Source: Escherichia coli
GTDB lineage: Bacteria; Pseudomonadota; Gammaproteobacteria; Enterobacterales; Enterobacteriaceae
Assembly: GCF_003334815.1 (NCBI RefSeq)
Contig: NZ_QOWO01000001.1
Length of the DNA: 64,000 nt
Strand: one strand, 5' to 3'
Shown here: positions 3,272-28,927 of the stretch, piece by piece
Numbering within the stretch: the first letter of the stretch is position 1
How the letters are laid out: each line of letters begins with the position of its first letter
Position numbers and translations under genes: made by a program
Notes under the pieces: model-generated
The model's database searches: none
What the model was told of the DNA's origin: nothing
What the model saw: the letters and a program-made list of their open reading frames with translations, nothing else

Positions 3272-3813
3272 AACGGATAATAACAGGATGCCTGCTGCTG
3301 AACTTCGCCATGGCCGCTCAGGCAGAGTGTAATATCTCCAGTAGCATACAAAATATCGACTATGGCAAACGAAGTGCTGCCATGCGCCAAGTTGACCGGG
3401 GTAAAACAACACAATTAGCAGACAGAACAATCACGCTGGTAATGCAATGCGATCAGGACGCTCATATTCGTGTTCAGTTGAATACCGCTAATATTTCCAA
3501 CAACGGATTTGGATTTGGCCCGAATGGTTCATTAAATCTGATCGCCAGCGATGCATTTTCAGGTAGTAACAATCTCGACCTGGCGTTAGCCAGTGGCAAA
3601 AATGACAATCCGGGCAGCACAGGAACAGCATCAATTAGTACTTCCCCCAATAATTGGCTGGTGTTTATGCAAAATGGTCAAGAAGTGGTAATTGATAGCG
3701 GTAAAAGCGTTAGCCTCACACTGACAATGGCTCCAGCTTTTAAGGATGAAGGGGAACTAACCGACATGACAGATATTACAGGCAATCTGACGGTCCTGGT
3801 GGAGGCAAAATGA
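3262..3813 (+). CDS. yhcE: Fimbrial-like protein, apparently intact
   Basis: ORF track 183 aa with signal-peptide-like N-terminus; position after the usher; no IS interruption visible. Confidence 0.7.
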   Translation: MPMKRIITGCLLLNFAMAAQAECNISSSIQNIDYGKRSAAMRQVDRGKTTQLADRTITLVMQCDQDAHIRVQLNTANISNNGFGFGPNGSLNLIASDAFSGSNNLDLALASGKNDNPGSTGTASISTSPNNWLVFMQNGQEVVIDSGKSVSLTLTMAPAFKDEGELTDMTDITGNLTVLVEAK

Positions 3814-4710: not shown

Positions 4711-5838
4711 ATGGAATCGCTCTCAGAAGGAACCACAGCAGGCTACCAGCAAATCCACGACGGTATTATTCATCTGGTCGATAGCGCCCGGACGGAAACG
4801 GTACGTAGCGTTAACGCGTTAATGACCGCGACGTACCAGGAAATTGGCCGACGAATTGTCGAATTTGAACAAGGTGGCGAGGCCAGGGCTGCGTATGGTG
4901 CGCAGCTAATCAAGCGACTATCAAAGGATTTATGTCTAAGGTATAAGCGTGGGTTCTCTGCAAAAAACTTACGCCAAATGAGGCTTTTTTACCTCTTTTT
5001 TCAACATGTTGAAATTCGCCAGACAATGTCTGGCGAATTAACACCATTGGGAATTCCGCAGACACCGTCTGCAGAATTCCCATCGGCAAAGATTTGGCAG
5101 ACGCTGTCTGCCAAATCTTTCCCCTTGCCCAGGTCCACCTACGTCCGTTTACTTTCCGTTAAAAACGCTGACGCCCGCAGCTTTTATGAAAAAGAGACGC
5201 TCCGCTGTGGCTGGTCTGTTCGCCAGCTAGAGCGGCAAATTGCGACCCAGTTTTATGAGCGGACACTACTGTCACATGACAAATCAGCCATGCTGCAACA
5301 ACACGCTCCTGCCGAGACGCATATTCTTCCGCAACAGGCGATACGCGATCCCTTTGTGCTCGAATTTCTGGAATTGAAAGATGAATATTCAGAATCCGAT
5401 TTTGAGGAGGCGCTGATCAACCACCTGATGGATTTCATGCTGGAACTTGGGGATGATTTTGCCTTTGTTGGTCGGCAGCGAAGGTTACGCATTGATGACA
5501 ACTGGTTTCGTGTCGATCTGCTGTTTTTCCACCGCCGTTTACGCTGCCTGCTAATCGTCGATCTAAAAGTGGGCAAATTCAGCTATAGCGATGCCGGACA
5601 GATGAATATGTATCTCAACTACGCCAAAGAGCACTGGACGCTACCGGATGAAAATCCGCCCATCGGTCTGGTTCTCTGTGCAGAGAAAGGAGCCGGAGAA
5701 GCGCATTATGCTCTGGCAGGTTTGCCTAACACCGTTCTGGCAAGCGAATATAAGATGCAACTACCTGATGAGAAACGACTCGCAGATGAACTCGTTCGAA
5801 CACAGGCGGTGCTAGAGGAAGGCTATAGACGCCGTTAA
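4711..5838 (+). CDS. yhcG: DUF1016-family protein (PDDEXK nuclease-like YhcG)
   Basis: ORF track 375 aa; recognised as YhcG; contains three in-frame palindromic DNA units at 5013-5116. Confidence 0.85.
   Translation: MESLSEGTTAGYQQIHDGIIHLVDSARTETVRSVNALMTATYQEIGRRIVEFEQGGEARAAYGAQLIKRLSKDLCLRYKRGFSAKNLRQMRLFYLFFQHVEIRQTMSGELTPLGIPQTPSAEFPSAKIWQTLSAKSFPLPRSTYVRLLSVKNADARSFYEKETLRCGWSVRQLERQIATQFYERTLLSHDKSAMLQQHAPAETHILPQQAIRDPFVLEFLELKDEYSESDFEEALINHLMDFMLELGDDFAFVGRQRRLRIDDNWFRVDLLFFHRRLRCLLIVDLKVGKFSYSDAGQMNMYLNYAKEHWTLPDENPPIGLVLCAEKGAGEAHYALAGLPNTVLASEYKMQLPDEKRLADELVRTQAVLEEGYRRR
5013..5116. repeat. Three tandem palindromic units (core GCAGACA-N1-3-TGTCTGC) inside the yhcG coding sequence
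   Basis: Read directly: aattcgccagacaATGTCTGGCGAATT (5013-5039), gaattccgcagacaccgtctgcagaattc (5051-5079), tttggcagacgctgtctgccaaa (5094-5116). Confidence 0.8.
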
Positions 5839-7234: not shown

Positions 7235-7920
7235 AGCACCGCCTTTTTCATCGCTGTGTTGTACCACTGACAAATGTGCTCAAGACGCGTGATTGCAGAA
7301 CCGACCGTCACCGCCCACGCGCCGTGGCGCATCGCATCCGCCGCCTGAGCAGGCGTGTTGTAACGCCCTTCGGCAATCACCCGACATCCGGCGTCGCTCA
7401 ACGTTTTCACCAGCGCCAGATCCGGCTCTTCTGGCGTTTCAGGCGTGGTATAGCCAGAAAGCGTAGTGCCAATAATTTCGGCTCCCAGCTTTTGGCATGC
7501 CAGGCCGTCTTCCGGCGTTGAGCAGTCGGTCATCGCCAGTAAACCGTGATGGTGAATACGTGCCAGCAGCGTTTCAACAGGCACCGGACGCGGGCGGTCG
7601 GTGCCGTCAATGGCGATAATGTCCGCGCCCGCCTGCGCCAGCGCATCAACATCTTCAATATAGGCCGTGATGCGTACCGGAGAATCCTCCAGATCGCGTT
7701 TCACAATTCCAATAATCGGCACGCTCACCACCGCACGCGTGGCTTGCAGATTTGCCACACCTTCAATGCGAATGGCAACCGCGCCCGCCTGTTCTGCCGC
7801 TAATGCCATGGCGGCGACGATTTCGGGTTTATCGAGCGGGCTGTCCGGAACCGGCTGGCAGGAGACAATCAGGCCACCGTTAGCAGCGATTTTTTGATCC
7901 AGTTGTGCAAGTAACGACAT
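7231..7920 (-). CDS. nanE: N-acetylmannosamine-6-phosphate 2-epimerase
   Basis: ORF track 243 aa; canonical start [10 protein letters not shown] (ATG at 7920), giving 229 aa. Confidence 0.9.
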
Positions 7921-7967
7921 ACATCTTCCCTTAGCGAAAGGCCCGGTACATAGACCGGGCAACAGGA

Positions 7968-9458
7968 TTAACTTTTGGTTTTGACTAAATCGTTTTTGGC
8001 GCTGCCAAACGGCACGGCACCGCTGAATGGTTTACCGTCGATAGCGTCATGAGTACGCAACGCTTCCGGGCGCAACCAACGCTGAACGCGAGAAGGCATA
8101 TCCAGCCCAATCAGCAGGATCACCACGAACGTCAGACTGAACGAGAGCGATGCCAGCGCAGTACCCAGATCCAGACGTTGAGCGATCAACGCGCCGATGA
8201 TTGGGGCCAGTGCACCGCCCAATGCGCCAACGTTGTAGGTAAAGCCCAGGCCCGCTGCACGCTGGTCGGTATCGAAATAACCGCCAATCAGTTTTGGTAA
8301 GATCCCGGCGATCCCTTGTCCAAGCATTTGCTGGAAGAACAGTAACAGACCGAGCACCCAGACGTTTGCGCCGCCAATCGCAAATACCGGAATAATCAGC
8401 AGCTGCGAGGCCAGCAGGCTACAAACGTACGCTTTGCGGGTTCCCAGCCAGTCACCGAGGAAGCCACCTACGCAGCATCCCACCGCCGCGCCAAAGCCAC
8501 TAAAGAACAGCACATTGGCTACAGTATGCGGGTTATAAGCCAGATCGGTTTTCAGATACGTTGGCAGCAGCGCCTGAATCGGCCATGAGTAGAGGAAAGC
8601 AAACAACACGACCACCATCAGCATTACGCCCGTTGGCCAGCGTTTGCCTGTACTCTGCACCATAAAGCTGATAAAGATTGCGGCGCATAACAGCCCAAGA
8701 ACAGCGACGATCGCGGCATTTTGCAGGTTACCGGCGAAGCAGAACCACAGCGCAGTAGCCGCCGCCAGTGTCATTACGATATTGGCAATGCGATGTTCAC
8801 CACGGTAGAGAATATCCACCATTGTGCGTACTGGTGCTTTACCTGCGTGTTTCTCTTTCCAGTCTTCCGCTTCCGGGATGTTTTTACGCAGCCAGAGAGC
8901 AAAGATGATTGGCAAAATGCCGATAAAGAACAGCGCACGCCAGCCCCAGACCGGAACCACCAGGCTATAGACCTGAGCGGCAACGACGGCCCCCACAGAG
9001 AAGCCTGAAATCAAAAAACCACTGGCTTTGTTACGCAGATGTTTTGGCCAGCTTTCAATGACATAGGTGGCGCTGGAACCGTATTCACCCGCCATCCCCA
9101 TGCCGATGGCCAGACGAGCGATAAACATGGTGATGTAGCCTGGCGCAAAGCCGCAGGCCAGCGTCCCGGCCGAGAAGAGAACGATGCTGGTGACCATTGC
9201 CAGACGACGCCCGTAGCGGTCACCCATAGCGCCGAGCATCAGGCCGCCGAACCAGCGAGAGATAAAGGCTGCAGAGATCAGACTTGCCGCCTGCACCGTC
9301 GTCAGCCCGAATTCACCTTGTACTTCGGTGAGTACCAGGGCGATTAAAACGAAATCAAAACCGTCAAGCAGATATCCCAACCAGGCAGCGGAAAATGCGC
9401 GCCATTGTGCACGGTTGAGATGGCGATACCACGGGATATTCTGGGTTGTAGTACTCAT
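7968..9458 (-). CDS. nanT: Sialic acid transporter (MFS)
   Basis: ORF track 506 aa; canonical start [11 protein letters not shown] (ATG at 9458), giving 496 aa. Confidence 0.9.
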
Positions 9459-9566
9459 TGTGAGTCTCCCGCGGTGGGCGATGCCCACACGCTTTGGTAT
9501 GAAAATTGTAGGGTACAGATGCGTTTATTTCCCCTCACCCGGTAGGGGCGAGCGAGGGGAAACAAC

Positions 9567-10460
9567 TCACCCGCGCTCTTGCATCAACTGCTGGGCCAGC
9601 GCCTTCAGTTCTGGCAGATATTTTTCATCTACCGGTCCAAACGGTTTGCGGCACAGCGGCACAGAAACGACATCCATATAATGGAGGACAGTTTTCAGGC
9701 CGCGGAATACGCCCGTTTTGATCAGTAAATCAATGACTTTATTGCATTCAGTTTGCAGTTTCTGCGCGGTCTGGATATCGCCTTCTTTCAGCGCCTTAAC
9801 GATCCCCTGATAGCGCCAGCCCATGATGTTGTAGGTACTGCCGATACCACCATCAGCGCCCGCCAGCAGACCAGAGGCGAAGATTTCGTCGTAACCGTTA
9901 TAGAGCACAAGATCAGGATGTTCACGACGGATCTGCTCCATCTGATAGAGATCGCCAGAGGTCTGTTTCAGCGCACCTACGCCAGGCAATGTAACAAGTG
10001 TGTTGATCTGATCCAGGGTCAGTTTTACCCCACTCAGGGCTGGAATGTTGTACACCACCATCGGCAAACCATCCGCCGAATCAATAATTGCCCGATAGTG
10101 ATCGCAGTGTTCTTCAAAGCTGAAAGGATAGTAGAACGGCGTGACGGCGGAGACGGCATCGAAGCCATAACGTTTAGCCGATGCCGCAAGTTGTTGGCTT
10201 TCGGCGGTGCTGACGCAACCGACGTGGGCGATGAGTTTAATCTTACCTTTCGCCTCTTCGGCGACGATTTCCAGTACCTGTTCACGCTCGGAAAGGCTTT
10301 GTACAAAGGCCTCGCCGGTCGAACCACCCACGTATAAACCGTCGATGCCCTGCTGAATATTGAACTGAACCAGGCGACGCAGACTCGCTTTATCCAGTGC
10401 TTGTTGTTGGTCAAAAGGAGTCAGGAGTGCAGCCATTACGCCACGTAAATTCGTTGCCAT
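9567..10460 (-). CDS. nanA: N-acetylneuraminate lyase
   Basis: ORF track 297 aa; recognised NanA sequence. Confidence 0.95.
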
Positions 10461-10495
10461 AAATACCTCTGAAGTGATGCTTGTCTGATAAATGA

Positions 10496-10518
10496 TATAC
10501 CTTTATACCTGTTATACC
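10496..10518 (-). promoter_or_regulatory. NanR operator: three GGTATA hexamer repeats in the nanA promoter
   Basis: Plus strand reads TATACC at 10496-10501, 10504-10509 and 10513-10518 (GGTATA on the nanA strand); matches the published Nan box. Confidence 0.7.
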
Positions 10519-10581
10519 AGATCAATTAAGCAACACCCCATACAGAAAGCTTATAATGCGATCTGCTTCACTAAAGTGGCA

Positions 10582-11373
10582 TTATTTCTTTTTGTTGGTG
10601 GTCTGACCGAAAGCGTGCCAGGTAGCAGAGACGCTGTTGAGATGCGATTGCAACGCACGATCGGCTTCGTCAGGATCATGACGGCGGATCGCATCAACGA
10701 TCGCAATATGCTGTTGATAACTAACGTTGTTATGTTCGTGCAGTGCCTGATCGGTAACCGTTGGGCGTGCGGCAATAAGCCAGTCGAGCAGGGCAACGTG
10801 GATCGCCATGAAGATTGGGTTACCGGGGATCTCCGCCAGCACGCGGTGGAAATCAACGTCTGAACGAATGAATGCCGCGTTGTTATCCAGCGACTGACTG
10901 TTGATTTCCAGTGCTTTTGCCAGCAAATCGATTTGCTCATCGGTGGCATGTTCAGCCGCATAGCGCACCAGACTGGATTCAAAGAACAGACGTAATTGTT
11001 CGAAATGGGCAATCCCACCGGGATGAGAAAGGAAATCTTTCGCCATGCCGGAAAGCTCACCGATGATAGTGTCCGCAGAAGGACGCGAGACGCGAGCGCG
11101 TTCGCCGTTGTTTATTTGCACCAGACCTTTGCGTTTTAACGCTGCCAGCGCTTCACGCACCGAAGGACGCCCGACGTTAAAGAACGCCATCAGTTCGCGT
11201 TCAGACGGTAATTGTTCACCTTCTCCAAATTCACGACGGCGGATCATCTGTTCCAGCTCTTCTTCCACCATTTCGGAGAGTTTTTTACGCGCCAGCGGGC
11301 GGCTACGCAAGTTGCGACCAATTGCAGGTGAAGAATCTTCGGTTTGCGAATCAAATGCGTTCATAAGGCCCAT
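10582..11373 (-). CDS. nanR: GntR/FadR-family repressor of the sialic acid regulon
   Basis: ORF track 263 aa; recognised NanR sequence. Confidence 0.9.
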
Positions 11374-11752
11374 TCTGTAAGGTCAGTGTGATTAACATCA
11401 TCAGTGACATCCTATCACAGGATTGAAAGTAGGGGAAAATGGCAGGGTTTTCTCTTTGTGCCTCATCATTACCATAATTAACGGAATAATTAACTATTGC
11501 GAAAAATTAATGTAACGCAGATAAAAACATCCCGTTTGAATTATTTATAAGACTATTCACGAGCATTATGAATATTATGAATGTGTTCTTACAAAATAAT
11601 CATAAGCGCATATTTTTTAATGAAAAATCACCTCACCTACAATTAAAAACACGACATCCGCACCATAAATAGCCTTGCAAAAAATATAACATCGTTGTTT
11701 TCAATCTGCCGTTTATGGGATTGACCGTTTTCTTTTGACACGGAGTTCAACA

Positions 11753-26403: not shown

Positions 26404-27333
26404 ATGGAACGACTAAAACGCATGTCGGTGTTTGCCAAAGTAGTTGAATTTGGCTCTTTTACCGCCGCCGCCAGACAGCTACAGATGAGCGTTTCGTCCA
26501 TCAGTCAGACGGTATCAAAACTGGAAGATGAGTTGCAGGTAAAGCTGTTAAACCGTAGCACACGCAGCATTGGCCTGACCGAAGCCGGTAGAATTTACTA
26601 CCAGGGCTGCCGTCGTATGCTTCATGAAGTGCAGGATGTTCATGAGCAACTGTATGCCTTCAATAACACCCCCATCGGGACGCTACGCATTGGCTGTTCT
26701 TCAACTATGGCACAAAATGTTCTCGCCGGGCTGACAGCCAAAATGCTGAAAGAATACCCAGGTTTGAGCGTCAATCTGGTTACCGGAATTCCAGCCCCCG
26801 ACCTGATTGCCGACGGTCTGGATGTGGTGATCCGCGTCGGCGCGTTGCAGGATTCCAGCCTGTTTTCCCGCCGTCTGGGCGCGATGCCAATGGTGGTGTG
26901 CGCCGCGAAAAGCTATCTCACACAATACGGCATACCGGAAAAACCCGCCGATTTGAGTAGTCATTCATGGCTTGAATACAGCGTGCGGCCCGACAATGAA
27001 TTTGAACTGATCGCACCGGAAGGGATCTCGACTCGCCTGATCCCACAAGGAAGATTTGTGACTAATGATCCGATGACGCTGGTGCGCTGGCTGACGGCGG
27101 GTGCCGGGATCGCCTACGTGCCGCTGATGTGGGTGATCAACGAGATCAATCGTGGGGAGCTGGAGATCCTGCTGCCGCGTTACCAGTCAGATCCACGCCC
27201 GGTTTATGCGTTATATACCGAAAAAGATAAGCTGCCGCTGAAGGTACAGGTCGTGATCAACTCGCTGACGGATTATTTTGTTGAGGTCGGTAAATTGTTT
27301 CAGGAGATGCACGGGCGCGGGAAAGAGAAGTAA
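26404..27333 (+). CDS. aaeR: LysR-family activator of aaeXAB
   Basis: ORF track 309 aa; N-terminal HTH; divergent from aaeXAB. Confidence 0.9.
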   Translation: MERLKRMSVFAKVVEFGSFTAAARQLQMSVSSISQTVSKLEDELQVKLLNRSTRSIGLTEAGRIYYQGCRRMLHEVQDVHEQLYAFNNTPIGTLRIGCSSTMAQNVLAGLTAKMLKEYPGLSVNLVTGIPAPDLIADGLDVVIRVGALQDSSLFSRRLGAMPMVVCAAKSYLTQYGIPEKPADLSSHSWLEYSVRPDNEFELIAPEGISTRLIPQGRFVTNDPMTLVRWLTAGAGIAYVPLMWVINEINRGELEILLPRYQSDPRPVYALYTEKDKLPLKVQVVINSLTDYFVEVGKLFQEMHGRGKEK

Positions 27334-27466
27334 TTCATATTGTACTGTTACGTTGTACAAACCTGTGCCAACGGGTTCCCCTCACCCTAACCCTCACCCC
27401 AAAGGGGCGAGGGGACCGTTCGTGCACGTAGAAAGATTAATTATCCTTCTGAAAATAGTGAAATTA

Positions 27467-28927
<1,461 letters not shown>

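Follow-up and report, generated by a model that had tools for sequence, protein, structure and literature searches.

A conserved hairpin in the nanA–nanT intercistronic spacer of Escherichia and its likely relationship to BoxC/TMECO repeats

The spacer between nanA and nanT of Escherichia coli encodes a stable hairpin (hereafter, hairpin 1) on the transcribed strand. This hairpin most likely derives, in degenerate form, from a BoxC/TMECO inverted pair and acts as an ordinary intercistronic stem-loop, and our best guess is that it sets the nanA:nanT ratio via RNA stability or processing. Below, we describe the structure and conservation of hairpin 1, compare it with the BoxC/PIT/TMECO and REP repeats and with the corresponding junctions of other Enterobacteriaceae, and weigh the possible roles.

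A stable hairpin follows nanA on the transcribed strand

The window, that is, the whole stretch of 64,000 nucleotides that was analysed, is E. coli K-12-like DNA, and its positions convert to those of NC_000913.3 by the addition of 3363116, an offset which was derived from the MG1655 annotation and agrees with the published position of TMECO #14. According to the open reading frame (ORF) calls and the MG1655 annotation, nanA (9567–10460) and nanT (7968–9458) are both encoded on the minus strand and are separated by a 108-nt spacer (9459–9566), of which the minus strand is transcribed. Sequence and annotation place the UGA stop codon of nanA at 9567–9569, whereas at the opposite end of the spacer the Shine–Dalgarno sequence of nanT, GGGAGA (9465–9470), precedes the ATG start codon (9456–9458). 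An antisense ORF across the spacer (9328–9681, plus strand, 117 aa) was rejected as a coding sequence, because 1-nt indels in the spacer segregate within E. coli and between Escherichia lineages. The next junction of the operon, the nanT–nanE spacer (7921–7967, minus strand), contains only a modest 7-bp GC hairpin (GCCCGGU/ACCGGGC; z −1.2), which is no better than those of shuffled sequences. Elsewhere in the window, the largest inverted repeat is a cluster of nested long palindromes at 5013–5123, with arms of 50 nt at 72%, 18 nt at 94% and 13 nt at 100% complementarity.

At the DNA level, hairpin 1 is an imperfect inverted repeat with 17-nt arms (9525–9541 and 9549–9565) that are 82% complementary and are separated by a 7-nt gap. 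In the order of the mRNA strand, the junction reads UGA-GUUG-UUUCCCCUCGCUCG-CCCCUAC-CGGGUGAGGGGAAA-UAAACGC, where the stop codon is followed by the 5′ arm (9549–9562), the loop CCCCUAC (9542–9548) and the 3′ arm (9528–9541), all on the minus strand. The predicted stem consists of a 14-bp core, extendable to 17 bp, with a 7-nt loop, and starts about 4–5 nt past the nanA stop codon (spacer position 2–5). Folded as sense RNA, hairpin 1 reaches −26.8 kcal/mol, compared to the mean of −12.5 kcal/mol for shuffled sequences (z −5.6; none of the 200 shuffles folds as well). By contrast, the antisense RNA folds at −17.6 kcal/mol (z −1.8), because two G–U pairs of the sense stem become C–A mismatches. 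Hairpin 1 is a real structure that exceeds chance expectation and is clearly better on the mRNA strand; it is a stem-loop within the polycistronic nanATEK–nanQ mRNA.

An earlier note on this DNA had described a GC-rich palindromic hairpin inside the nanATEK operon, between nanA and nanT, and this description was borne out, with the additions that the hairpin belongs to the transcribed strand and lies directly after nanA. The 35-mer quoted there, TTTCCCCTCACCCGGTAGGGGCGAGCGAGGGGAAA, occurs once in the window (9528–9562, plus strand), within the interval 9519–9566 to which the note had assigned the element; there were no chance matches in 100 shuffles, and no second copy within three mismatches was found in the 64-kb window. 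Both the relationship to BoxC/TMECO and the second hairpin near the nanT Shine–Dalgarno sequence, described below, are missing from that note.

The helix is predicted to extend beyond hairpin 1, yielding a composite structure (9515–9574, minus strand) of ~25 bp with two one-base interruptions, a folding energy of −37.1 kcal/mol and z of −4.2. Its lower stem would be formed by GCGGGUG, which includes the nanA UGA, and CAUCUGU (9515–9521), and is weak, with three of the seven pairs being G–U. A helix of ~25 bp falls in the size range of RNase III substrates, which comprise about two turns of double-stranded RNA and are cleaved in an rnc-dependent manner.

Two short repetitions are apparent in the same region. 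An 8-nt direct repeat, CGGGUGAG, is present on the minus strand at the nanA end, with the UGA included (9566–9573), and in the 3′ arm of the hairpin (9534–9541), so that the 5′ arm can pair alternatively with the end of nanA, at a predicted −12.7 kcal/mol. This repeat may be due to chance or may be a trace of the origin of the element. The minus strand also contains two copies of the hexamer CCCUAC, of which one (9542–9547) belongs to the invariant loop of hairpin 1 and the other (~9507–9512) to an invariant part of the downstream linker. Spacers of many other genera repeatedly contain a 'CCTACAA' motif, which there resembles a REP tail.

A search of positions 7500–12000 against Rfam at E ≤ 10 identified no relevant family, and no NanR operator (GGTATA repeats) was seen in hairpin 1 upon inspection by eye. 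Our literature search found no paper on this nanA–nanT hairpin.

Conservation within Escherichia

We compared seven Escherichia lineages, namely, K-12, E. albertii, E. whittamii and four divergent clades. In the spacer, 16 of the 109 alignment columns (15%) are variable, compared to 229 of the 394 fourfold-degenerate sites (58%) of nanA and nanT (Fisher p = 1e-16), that is, variability in the spacer is about four times lower than at the fourfold-degenerate sites of both flanking genes. Given that this variability is far below the synonymous level, a role of the spacer in the mRNA is credible.

Within hairpin 1, variation is confined to the 5′ arm; none of the 7 loop columns and none of the 14 columns of the 3′ arm is variable. 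Each of the four 5′-arm substitutions leaves a standard pair in the sense RNA; two are C>U opposite G, one is G>A opposite U and one is U>C opposite G. The probability that pairing is kept at all four positions is 0.001–0.02 under a simple neutral model. Furthermore, each of the lineage variants of hairpin 1 folds at −23 to −30 kcal/mol. The covariation support for hairpin 1 comprises these four one-sided substitutions and no double compensatory changes. Unlike the loci of real TMECOs, Escherichia hairpin 1 appears to be under strong purifying selection, and the substitution pattern points to selection on the sense-strand RNA. However, the whole spacer is conserved, beyond hairpin 1, so the selected function could sit elsewhere, for instance, in the initiation of nanT translation.

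A similar picture emerges among strains of E. coli. The spacer is present in 5409 of the 5426 complete E. coli genomes, and 5396 of those 5409 have it at an identity of at least 99%; where strains differ, the common changes are an inserted T or a G>T substitution in the sequence that flanks the stem on its 5′ side. For the spacer that harbours TMECO #14, by contrast, an identity of at least 99% is reached in just 957 of 5422 E. coli genomes, and many of the copies contain deletions, in agreement with the instability reported for TMECO loci.

Relationship to the BoxC/PIT/TMECO repeats

The BoxC/PIT/TMECO repeats were reportedly described by Bergler in 1992, by Bachellier in the 1990s and by Hoyne and Maher in 2000. 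The TMECO consensus is 5′-CCCTCNCCC N3–6 GGGNGAGGG N3 GGGNGAGGG-3′ (Holder et al., 2015; PMC4666352). The family has no assigned function, its loci are hypervariable between strains, and 23 copies are listed in MG1655 (PMC4666352). Inverted TMECO pairs are subject to a 'palindrome effect', whereby small internal deletions leave a hairpin (PMC4666352).

The 3′ arm of hairpin 1 contains a TMECO G-block, GGGTGAGGG, which is preceded by what appears to be a remnant of the type-B 'CC(G)' loop. In the window, this block is found at two places only, in hairpin 1 and at 27379–27399. The latter belongs to a canonical BoxC/TMECO element (27379–27413, minus strand) which is the sole match to the three-block consensus in a regular expression search over the window; it corresponds to the published TMECO #14 (3390529–3390494) and is located between the ORFs at 26404–27333 (plus strand) and 27467–28912 (minus strand). 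Hairpin 1 itself does not conform to the three-block consensus, having a single G-block (GGGTGAGGG) and, in E. coli, a degenerate C-block, and is not among the 23 MG1655 TMECOs in Table 1 of PMC4666352. The E. albertii spacer, however, retains both perfect outer blocks, CCCTCACCC and GGGTGAGGG. Furthermore, hairpin 1 is a single-copy sequence, with a median of one place per genome in megablast and blastn searches even at E ≤ 10, compared to a median of eight places per genome when a full TMECO pair is used as the query.

The origin of hairpin 1 is illuminated by relatives with complete elements at the same junction. Among the nanA–nanT loci of 80 Enterobacteriaceae species, three, those of Pseudocitrobacter faecalis, P. 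vendiensis and Enterobacter sp. kpr-6, contain full TMECOs, which in these loci are located solely within the nanA–nanT spacer. The outermost blocks of the inverted pairs in these three species, CCCCTCACCC and GGGGTGAGGG, correspond to the arms of Escherichia hairpin 1, and the TMECO pairs of Pseudocitrobacter and Enterobacter sp. kpr-6 have a terminal block that can be aligned with its 3′ arm. Escherichia and the three TMECO-bearing species also have in common the nanT-proximal hairpin 2 and a motif further downstream of hairpin 1, CATTCATACCAAAGCG. From the similarity of the blocks and the presence of full TMECO pairs at the identical position, we infer that Escherichia hairpin 1 is probably the collapsed remnant of an inverted BoxC/PIT/TMECO pair, of which the outermost C-block and G-block would have survived and now pair with each other; the similarity is compatible with descent rather than a phylogenetic proof thereof. 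Partial deletion of this kind is found in a metagenomic relative of kpr-6, in which the outer blocks of one TMECO are lost. A metagenome scan with a 16-mer, which is too short a query for this purpose, produced chance matches in 119 of 120 loci and a single real one.

Two further arrangements of TMECOs deserve mention. The spacer of P. vendiensis (L010, positions 3395–3797; 403 nt) contains five TMECOs, one inverted and four in tandem ~73–75 nt apart, an arrangement that, judged from its layout, represents local amplification of the repeat inside the operon. In E. coli K-12, the lldD–trmL spacer (L082, positions 601–732) carries an inverted TMECO pair, published as #17 and #18, the right end of which, ...CTCGCCCCTCCGGGGAGAGGGCCGGGGTGAGGGGAAAA, closely resembles the nan hairpin CTCGCCCCTACCGGGTGAGGGGAAA, save for one missing G-block.

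The nanA–nanT junction in other Enterobacteriaceae

The order nanA–nanT is conserved in all 80 loci of the comparison set, whereas the length of the spacer ranges from 32 to 403 nt. With the spacer of the window included (81 spacers in total), a strong hairpin is present in 76, starting no more than 15 nt from the stop codon in 48 of these and further away in the remaining 28. The sequences of the hairpins are unrelated between groups and are REP-like, TMECO-like or private. Pairs resembling REP/BIME elements are found at the junction in Salmonella, Citrobacter and many Enterobacter, the spacer of Kluyvera contains a degenerate TMECO, and Raoultella, Edwardsiella, Phytobacter and others have private hairpins. 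Hairpins of the other genera are much shorter than the 25-bp composite helix of Escherichia. In folds by strand, the junction hairpins are better as sense RNA in 45 cases and worse in 25, whereas the REP-like ones are symmetric (20 versus 17). The recurrence of hairpins after nanA is equally compatible with selection and with a preference of palindromic repeats for insertion into intercistronic spacers. The spacers of Trabulsiella odontotermitis (L044; 33 nt) and T. guamensis (L046; 32 nt) lack a hairpin, with both nanA and nanT intact, and could serve as comparators, being natural 'deletion' variants of the junction.

The Escherichia spacer itself shows no sign of a REP. A regular expression search for the REP consensus (GCCGGATG... 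/ ...CCGGCCTAC) yielded no match in the Escherichia spacer, NC_000913.3 has no repeat or REP annotation at this position, and the nan hairpin is unlisted in the RepRanger supplement.

The linker and the nanT-proximal hairpin

Hairpin 1 is followed on the minus strand by a linker (9493–9527; AAAUAAACGCAUCUGUACCCUACAAUUUUCAUACCAAA) which is rich in A/U and C and is predicted to be single-stranded in the folds. The corresponding segment (spacer positions 40–77) has 5 variable columns out of 38 among Escherichia, and the linker motif CAUACCAAAGCG is common to Escherichia, Kluyvera, Pseudocitrobacter and Enterobacter sp. kpr-6. The linker is a candidate entry site for an endonuclease that would cleave between the two cistrons.

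The linker leads into hairpin 2 (9471–9492, minus strand), GCG-U-GUGGGC AUC GCCCAC-CGC in the fold, which directly abuts the nanT Shine–Dalgarno sequence, the core of which, GGGAG, is present in nearly all 80 Enterobacteriaceae loci. A covariance model of hairpin 2 built from nine sequences found matches solely upstream of nanT, in 30 loci from about 12 genera; Salmonella and most Citrobacter are without hairpin 2. In the resulting alignment, which is fitted to the model and therefore leans towards the structure, 99.4% of the cells are paired, compensatory changes are found in two of the nine pairs, and none of 500 shuffles reaches the covariation score. The conservation of hairpin 2 is deeper and wider than that of hairpin 1, and within the spacer it may be the element of greater interest.

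Possible roles of hairpin 1

REP hairpins are exonuclease barriers that stabilize the upstream mRNA (Newbury, 1987; Khemici and Carpousis, 2004; both as summarized in PMC12306157). By analogy with such elements, we tentatively favour the possibility that hairpin 1 is a barrier to 3′-to-5′ exonucleases which stabilizes a decay intermediate of the nanA mRNA. The relic of a TMECO pair would have been fixed in Escherichia and maintained there by selection that acts on the RNA structure of the sense strand. The message might be cleaved endonucleolytically in the unstructured, A/U-rich downstream linker, or transcription or decay might stop within nanT. In either case, the nanA segment would then end in hairpin 1 and outlive the distal message. 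The outcome would be more NanA, the soluble lyase, than NanT, the membrane transporter, as with the REP hairpins of malE–malF, and hairpin 2, which adjoins the ribosome-binding site of nanT, may shield or organize the 5′ end of the downstream part.

A broader version of this proposal takes in the entire spacer. It is conceivable, albeit doubtful, that the spacer is a selected two-hairpin processing module which fixes the stoichiometry of NanA and NanT. In this module, a hairpin behind nanA would protect the 3′ end, cleavage would take place in the conserved single-stranded linker, and a covarying 5′ hairpin would be joined to the nanT ribosome-binding site. Under such a scenario, hairpin 1 would have been repeatedly rebuilt in Enterobacteriaceae from any palindromic repeat that happened to land there, be it REP, BoxC/TMECO or private, and in Escherichia would be a domesticated BoxC relic.

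The main rival of the exonuclease barrier is a brake on translation termination. Because the stem starts 4–5 nt after the nanA UGA, the terminating ribosome must melt hairpin 1, which might result in stalling, mRNA cleavage and trans-translation, and hence in lower NanA levels. Ribosome stalling is associated with REPs whose distance from the stop codon is below 16 nt (Liang, Rudd and Deutscher, 2015; as summarized in PMC12306157), a distance within which hairpin 1 falls, as do the 48 junction hairpins that start at most 15 nt from the stop, and the nanA stop codon is itself part of the predicted lower stem. However, the distance rule was established for REP sequences rather than for this hairpin, the first strong hairpin lies more than 15 nt from the stop codon in 28 of the 76 cases, and there is no obvious reason to lower the level of the first, soluble enzyme of the pathway. 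A brake of this kind appears unlikely.

Hairpin 1 could also be a functionless relic or a purely DNA-level element, that is, a tolerated leftover of BoxC/TMECO that owes its conservation to neighbouring signals or to a low local mutation rate. The clear likeness to the blocks of TMECO, a family for which no function has been assigned (PMC4666352), would fit this explanation, as would the intact operons of the two Trabulsiella species, in which the spacers of 32–33 nt have no hairpin. Such a leftover is nevertheless rather improbable, considering that the spacer is ~4 times less variable than fourfold-degenerate sites, whereas real TMECO loci are hypervariable (as shown by the TMECO #14 comparison; PMC4666352), and that the substitutions keep pairing on the sense RNA only, which neither a DNA-level nor a neutral element predicts.

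The earlier note had suggested an attenuator or an mRNA-processing site as possible roles of the hairpin. Understood as an intrinsic terminator, the attenuator is not supported: downstream of its stem, hairpin 1 continues into AAAUAAACGC without a U-tract, and no terminator-like site was detected by the terminator scan on either strand of the spacer. The same holds for the relatives, with a U-tract following none of the 76 junction hairpins, and PIT/BoxC elements have been reported to possess no promoter or terminator activity and to have no effect on RNA polymerase (PMC4666352). Furthermore, no 3′ end within the spacer (positions 33726xx of NC_000913.3) is among those listed from Term-seq by Adams and colleagues (2021), for cells grown without sialic acid, a condition under which the nan operon is poorly induced. 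Hairpin 1 is not an intrinsic terminator; what stands of the earlier note is the hairpin itself and a credible role in the mRNA, given how far the variability of the spacer lies below that of synonymous sites. A weaker form of the idea is a transcriptional attenuator or pause site, at which partial or Rho-assisted termination would allow fewer polymerases to reach nanT. The strong hairpin in the nascent RNA, followed by a C-rich, G-poor, unstructured stretch of ~40 nt, is compatible with this form, and BIME/REP-associated attenuation has been documented (Espeli, 2001; as cited in PMC12306157). Nevertheless, the same observations, namely, the missing U-tract here and in the orthologous hairpins, the negative terminator scan, the properties of PIT/BoxC and the listed 3′ ends, make attenuation highly doubtful.

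Other 3′ ends are reported for the nan operon in the same dataset. A strong ORF-internal 3′ end lies 45 nt into nanA, at position 10415 of the window (NC_000913.3 3373531, minus strand), and a further one lies within nanR, at 3374407 (Term-seq supplement; Adams et al., 2021); these possibly reflect transcripts that terminate prematurely or are processed where the nan operon begins. The SMRT-Cappable-seq supplement mentions neither nanA nor nanT.

Finally, modelling of the predicted 25-bp composite helix, with its two single-base interruptions and −37.1 kcal/mol, raises the possibility of RNase III cleavage that would separate the nanA and nanT mRNAs and give them different fates, but this is very unlikely, given the weak lower stem (three of seven pairs G–U), its occupation by terminating ribosomes, the much shorter hairpins in other genera and the RNase III candidates of Gordon and colleagues (2017), which, as listed, include two positions inside nanT and no position within the spacer. 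More generally, no RNase E or RNase III site has been reported in the spacer.

Implications and comparison with known systems

Tuning within operons by intercistronic stem-loops has been known since malE–malF. If hairpin 1 indeed sets the nanA:nanT ratio, it would be a further example of such tuning, and our findings leave current understanding standing. Three points are fresher. First, a remnant of the function-less BoxC/TMECO family has apparently been fixed and kept under selection at the RNA level; a domesticated BoxC relic, if true, would provide the first function assigned to any BoxC-derived sequence. Second, unrelated palindromic elements fill one and the same operon junction in different genera. 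Third, a second hairpin near the nanT ribosome-binding site shows compensatory changes across about a dozen genera. Sialic acid catabolism matters in gut colonization, and the stoichiometry of the lyase and the transporter is therefore of some physiological interest.

Among known elements, the BoxC/PIT/TMECO repeats are the closest in sequence. The nan hairpin shares with them the 9-nt blocks CCCTCNCCC (CCCTCACCC in E. albertii) and GGGTGAGGG, the 'CCG' linker before the last G-block that is typical of type-B TMECOs, and the strictly intergenic location. Unlike TMECOs, it has one G-block and so cannot form an intrastrand triplex, is single-copy, and resides in a spacer that is extremely stable across strains (5396 of 5409 versus 957 of 5422 genomes at ≥99% identity), in contrast to the hypervariable TMECO loci.

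With respect to transcription and translation, the nan hairpin differs from Rho-independent terminators in having no U-tract, and resembles the BIME attenuators (Espeli et al., 2001) in being a strong, GC-rich hairpin of the nascent RNA within an operon. As in the class of REPs described by Liang and colleagues (2015), a stable hairpin is positioned 4–5 nt past the stop codon, inside the distance that characterizes that class, but the nan hairpin is not a REP.

The system that the nan junction resembles most in layout is malE–malF. Unlike the REP hairpins found there, the nan hairpin has no REP consensus and is single-copy. Nevertheless, like the malE–malF hairpins, it is a GC-rich, sense-strand, intercistronic structure within one operon and has no U-tract. 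The structural description of the malE–malF type applies to it, in that it is a predicted stable sense-strand stem-loop between cistrons of a single transcription unit, with no promoter-like site detected by the promoter scan on the transcribed (minus) strand of the spacer. The arrangement of the genes is also the same, with a soluble protein (the NanA lyase) encoded upstream and a membrane protein (the NanT transporter) downstream, and in Salmonella and Citrobacter the nanA–nanT junction is occupied by genuine REP-like pairs.
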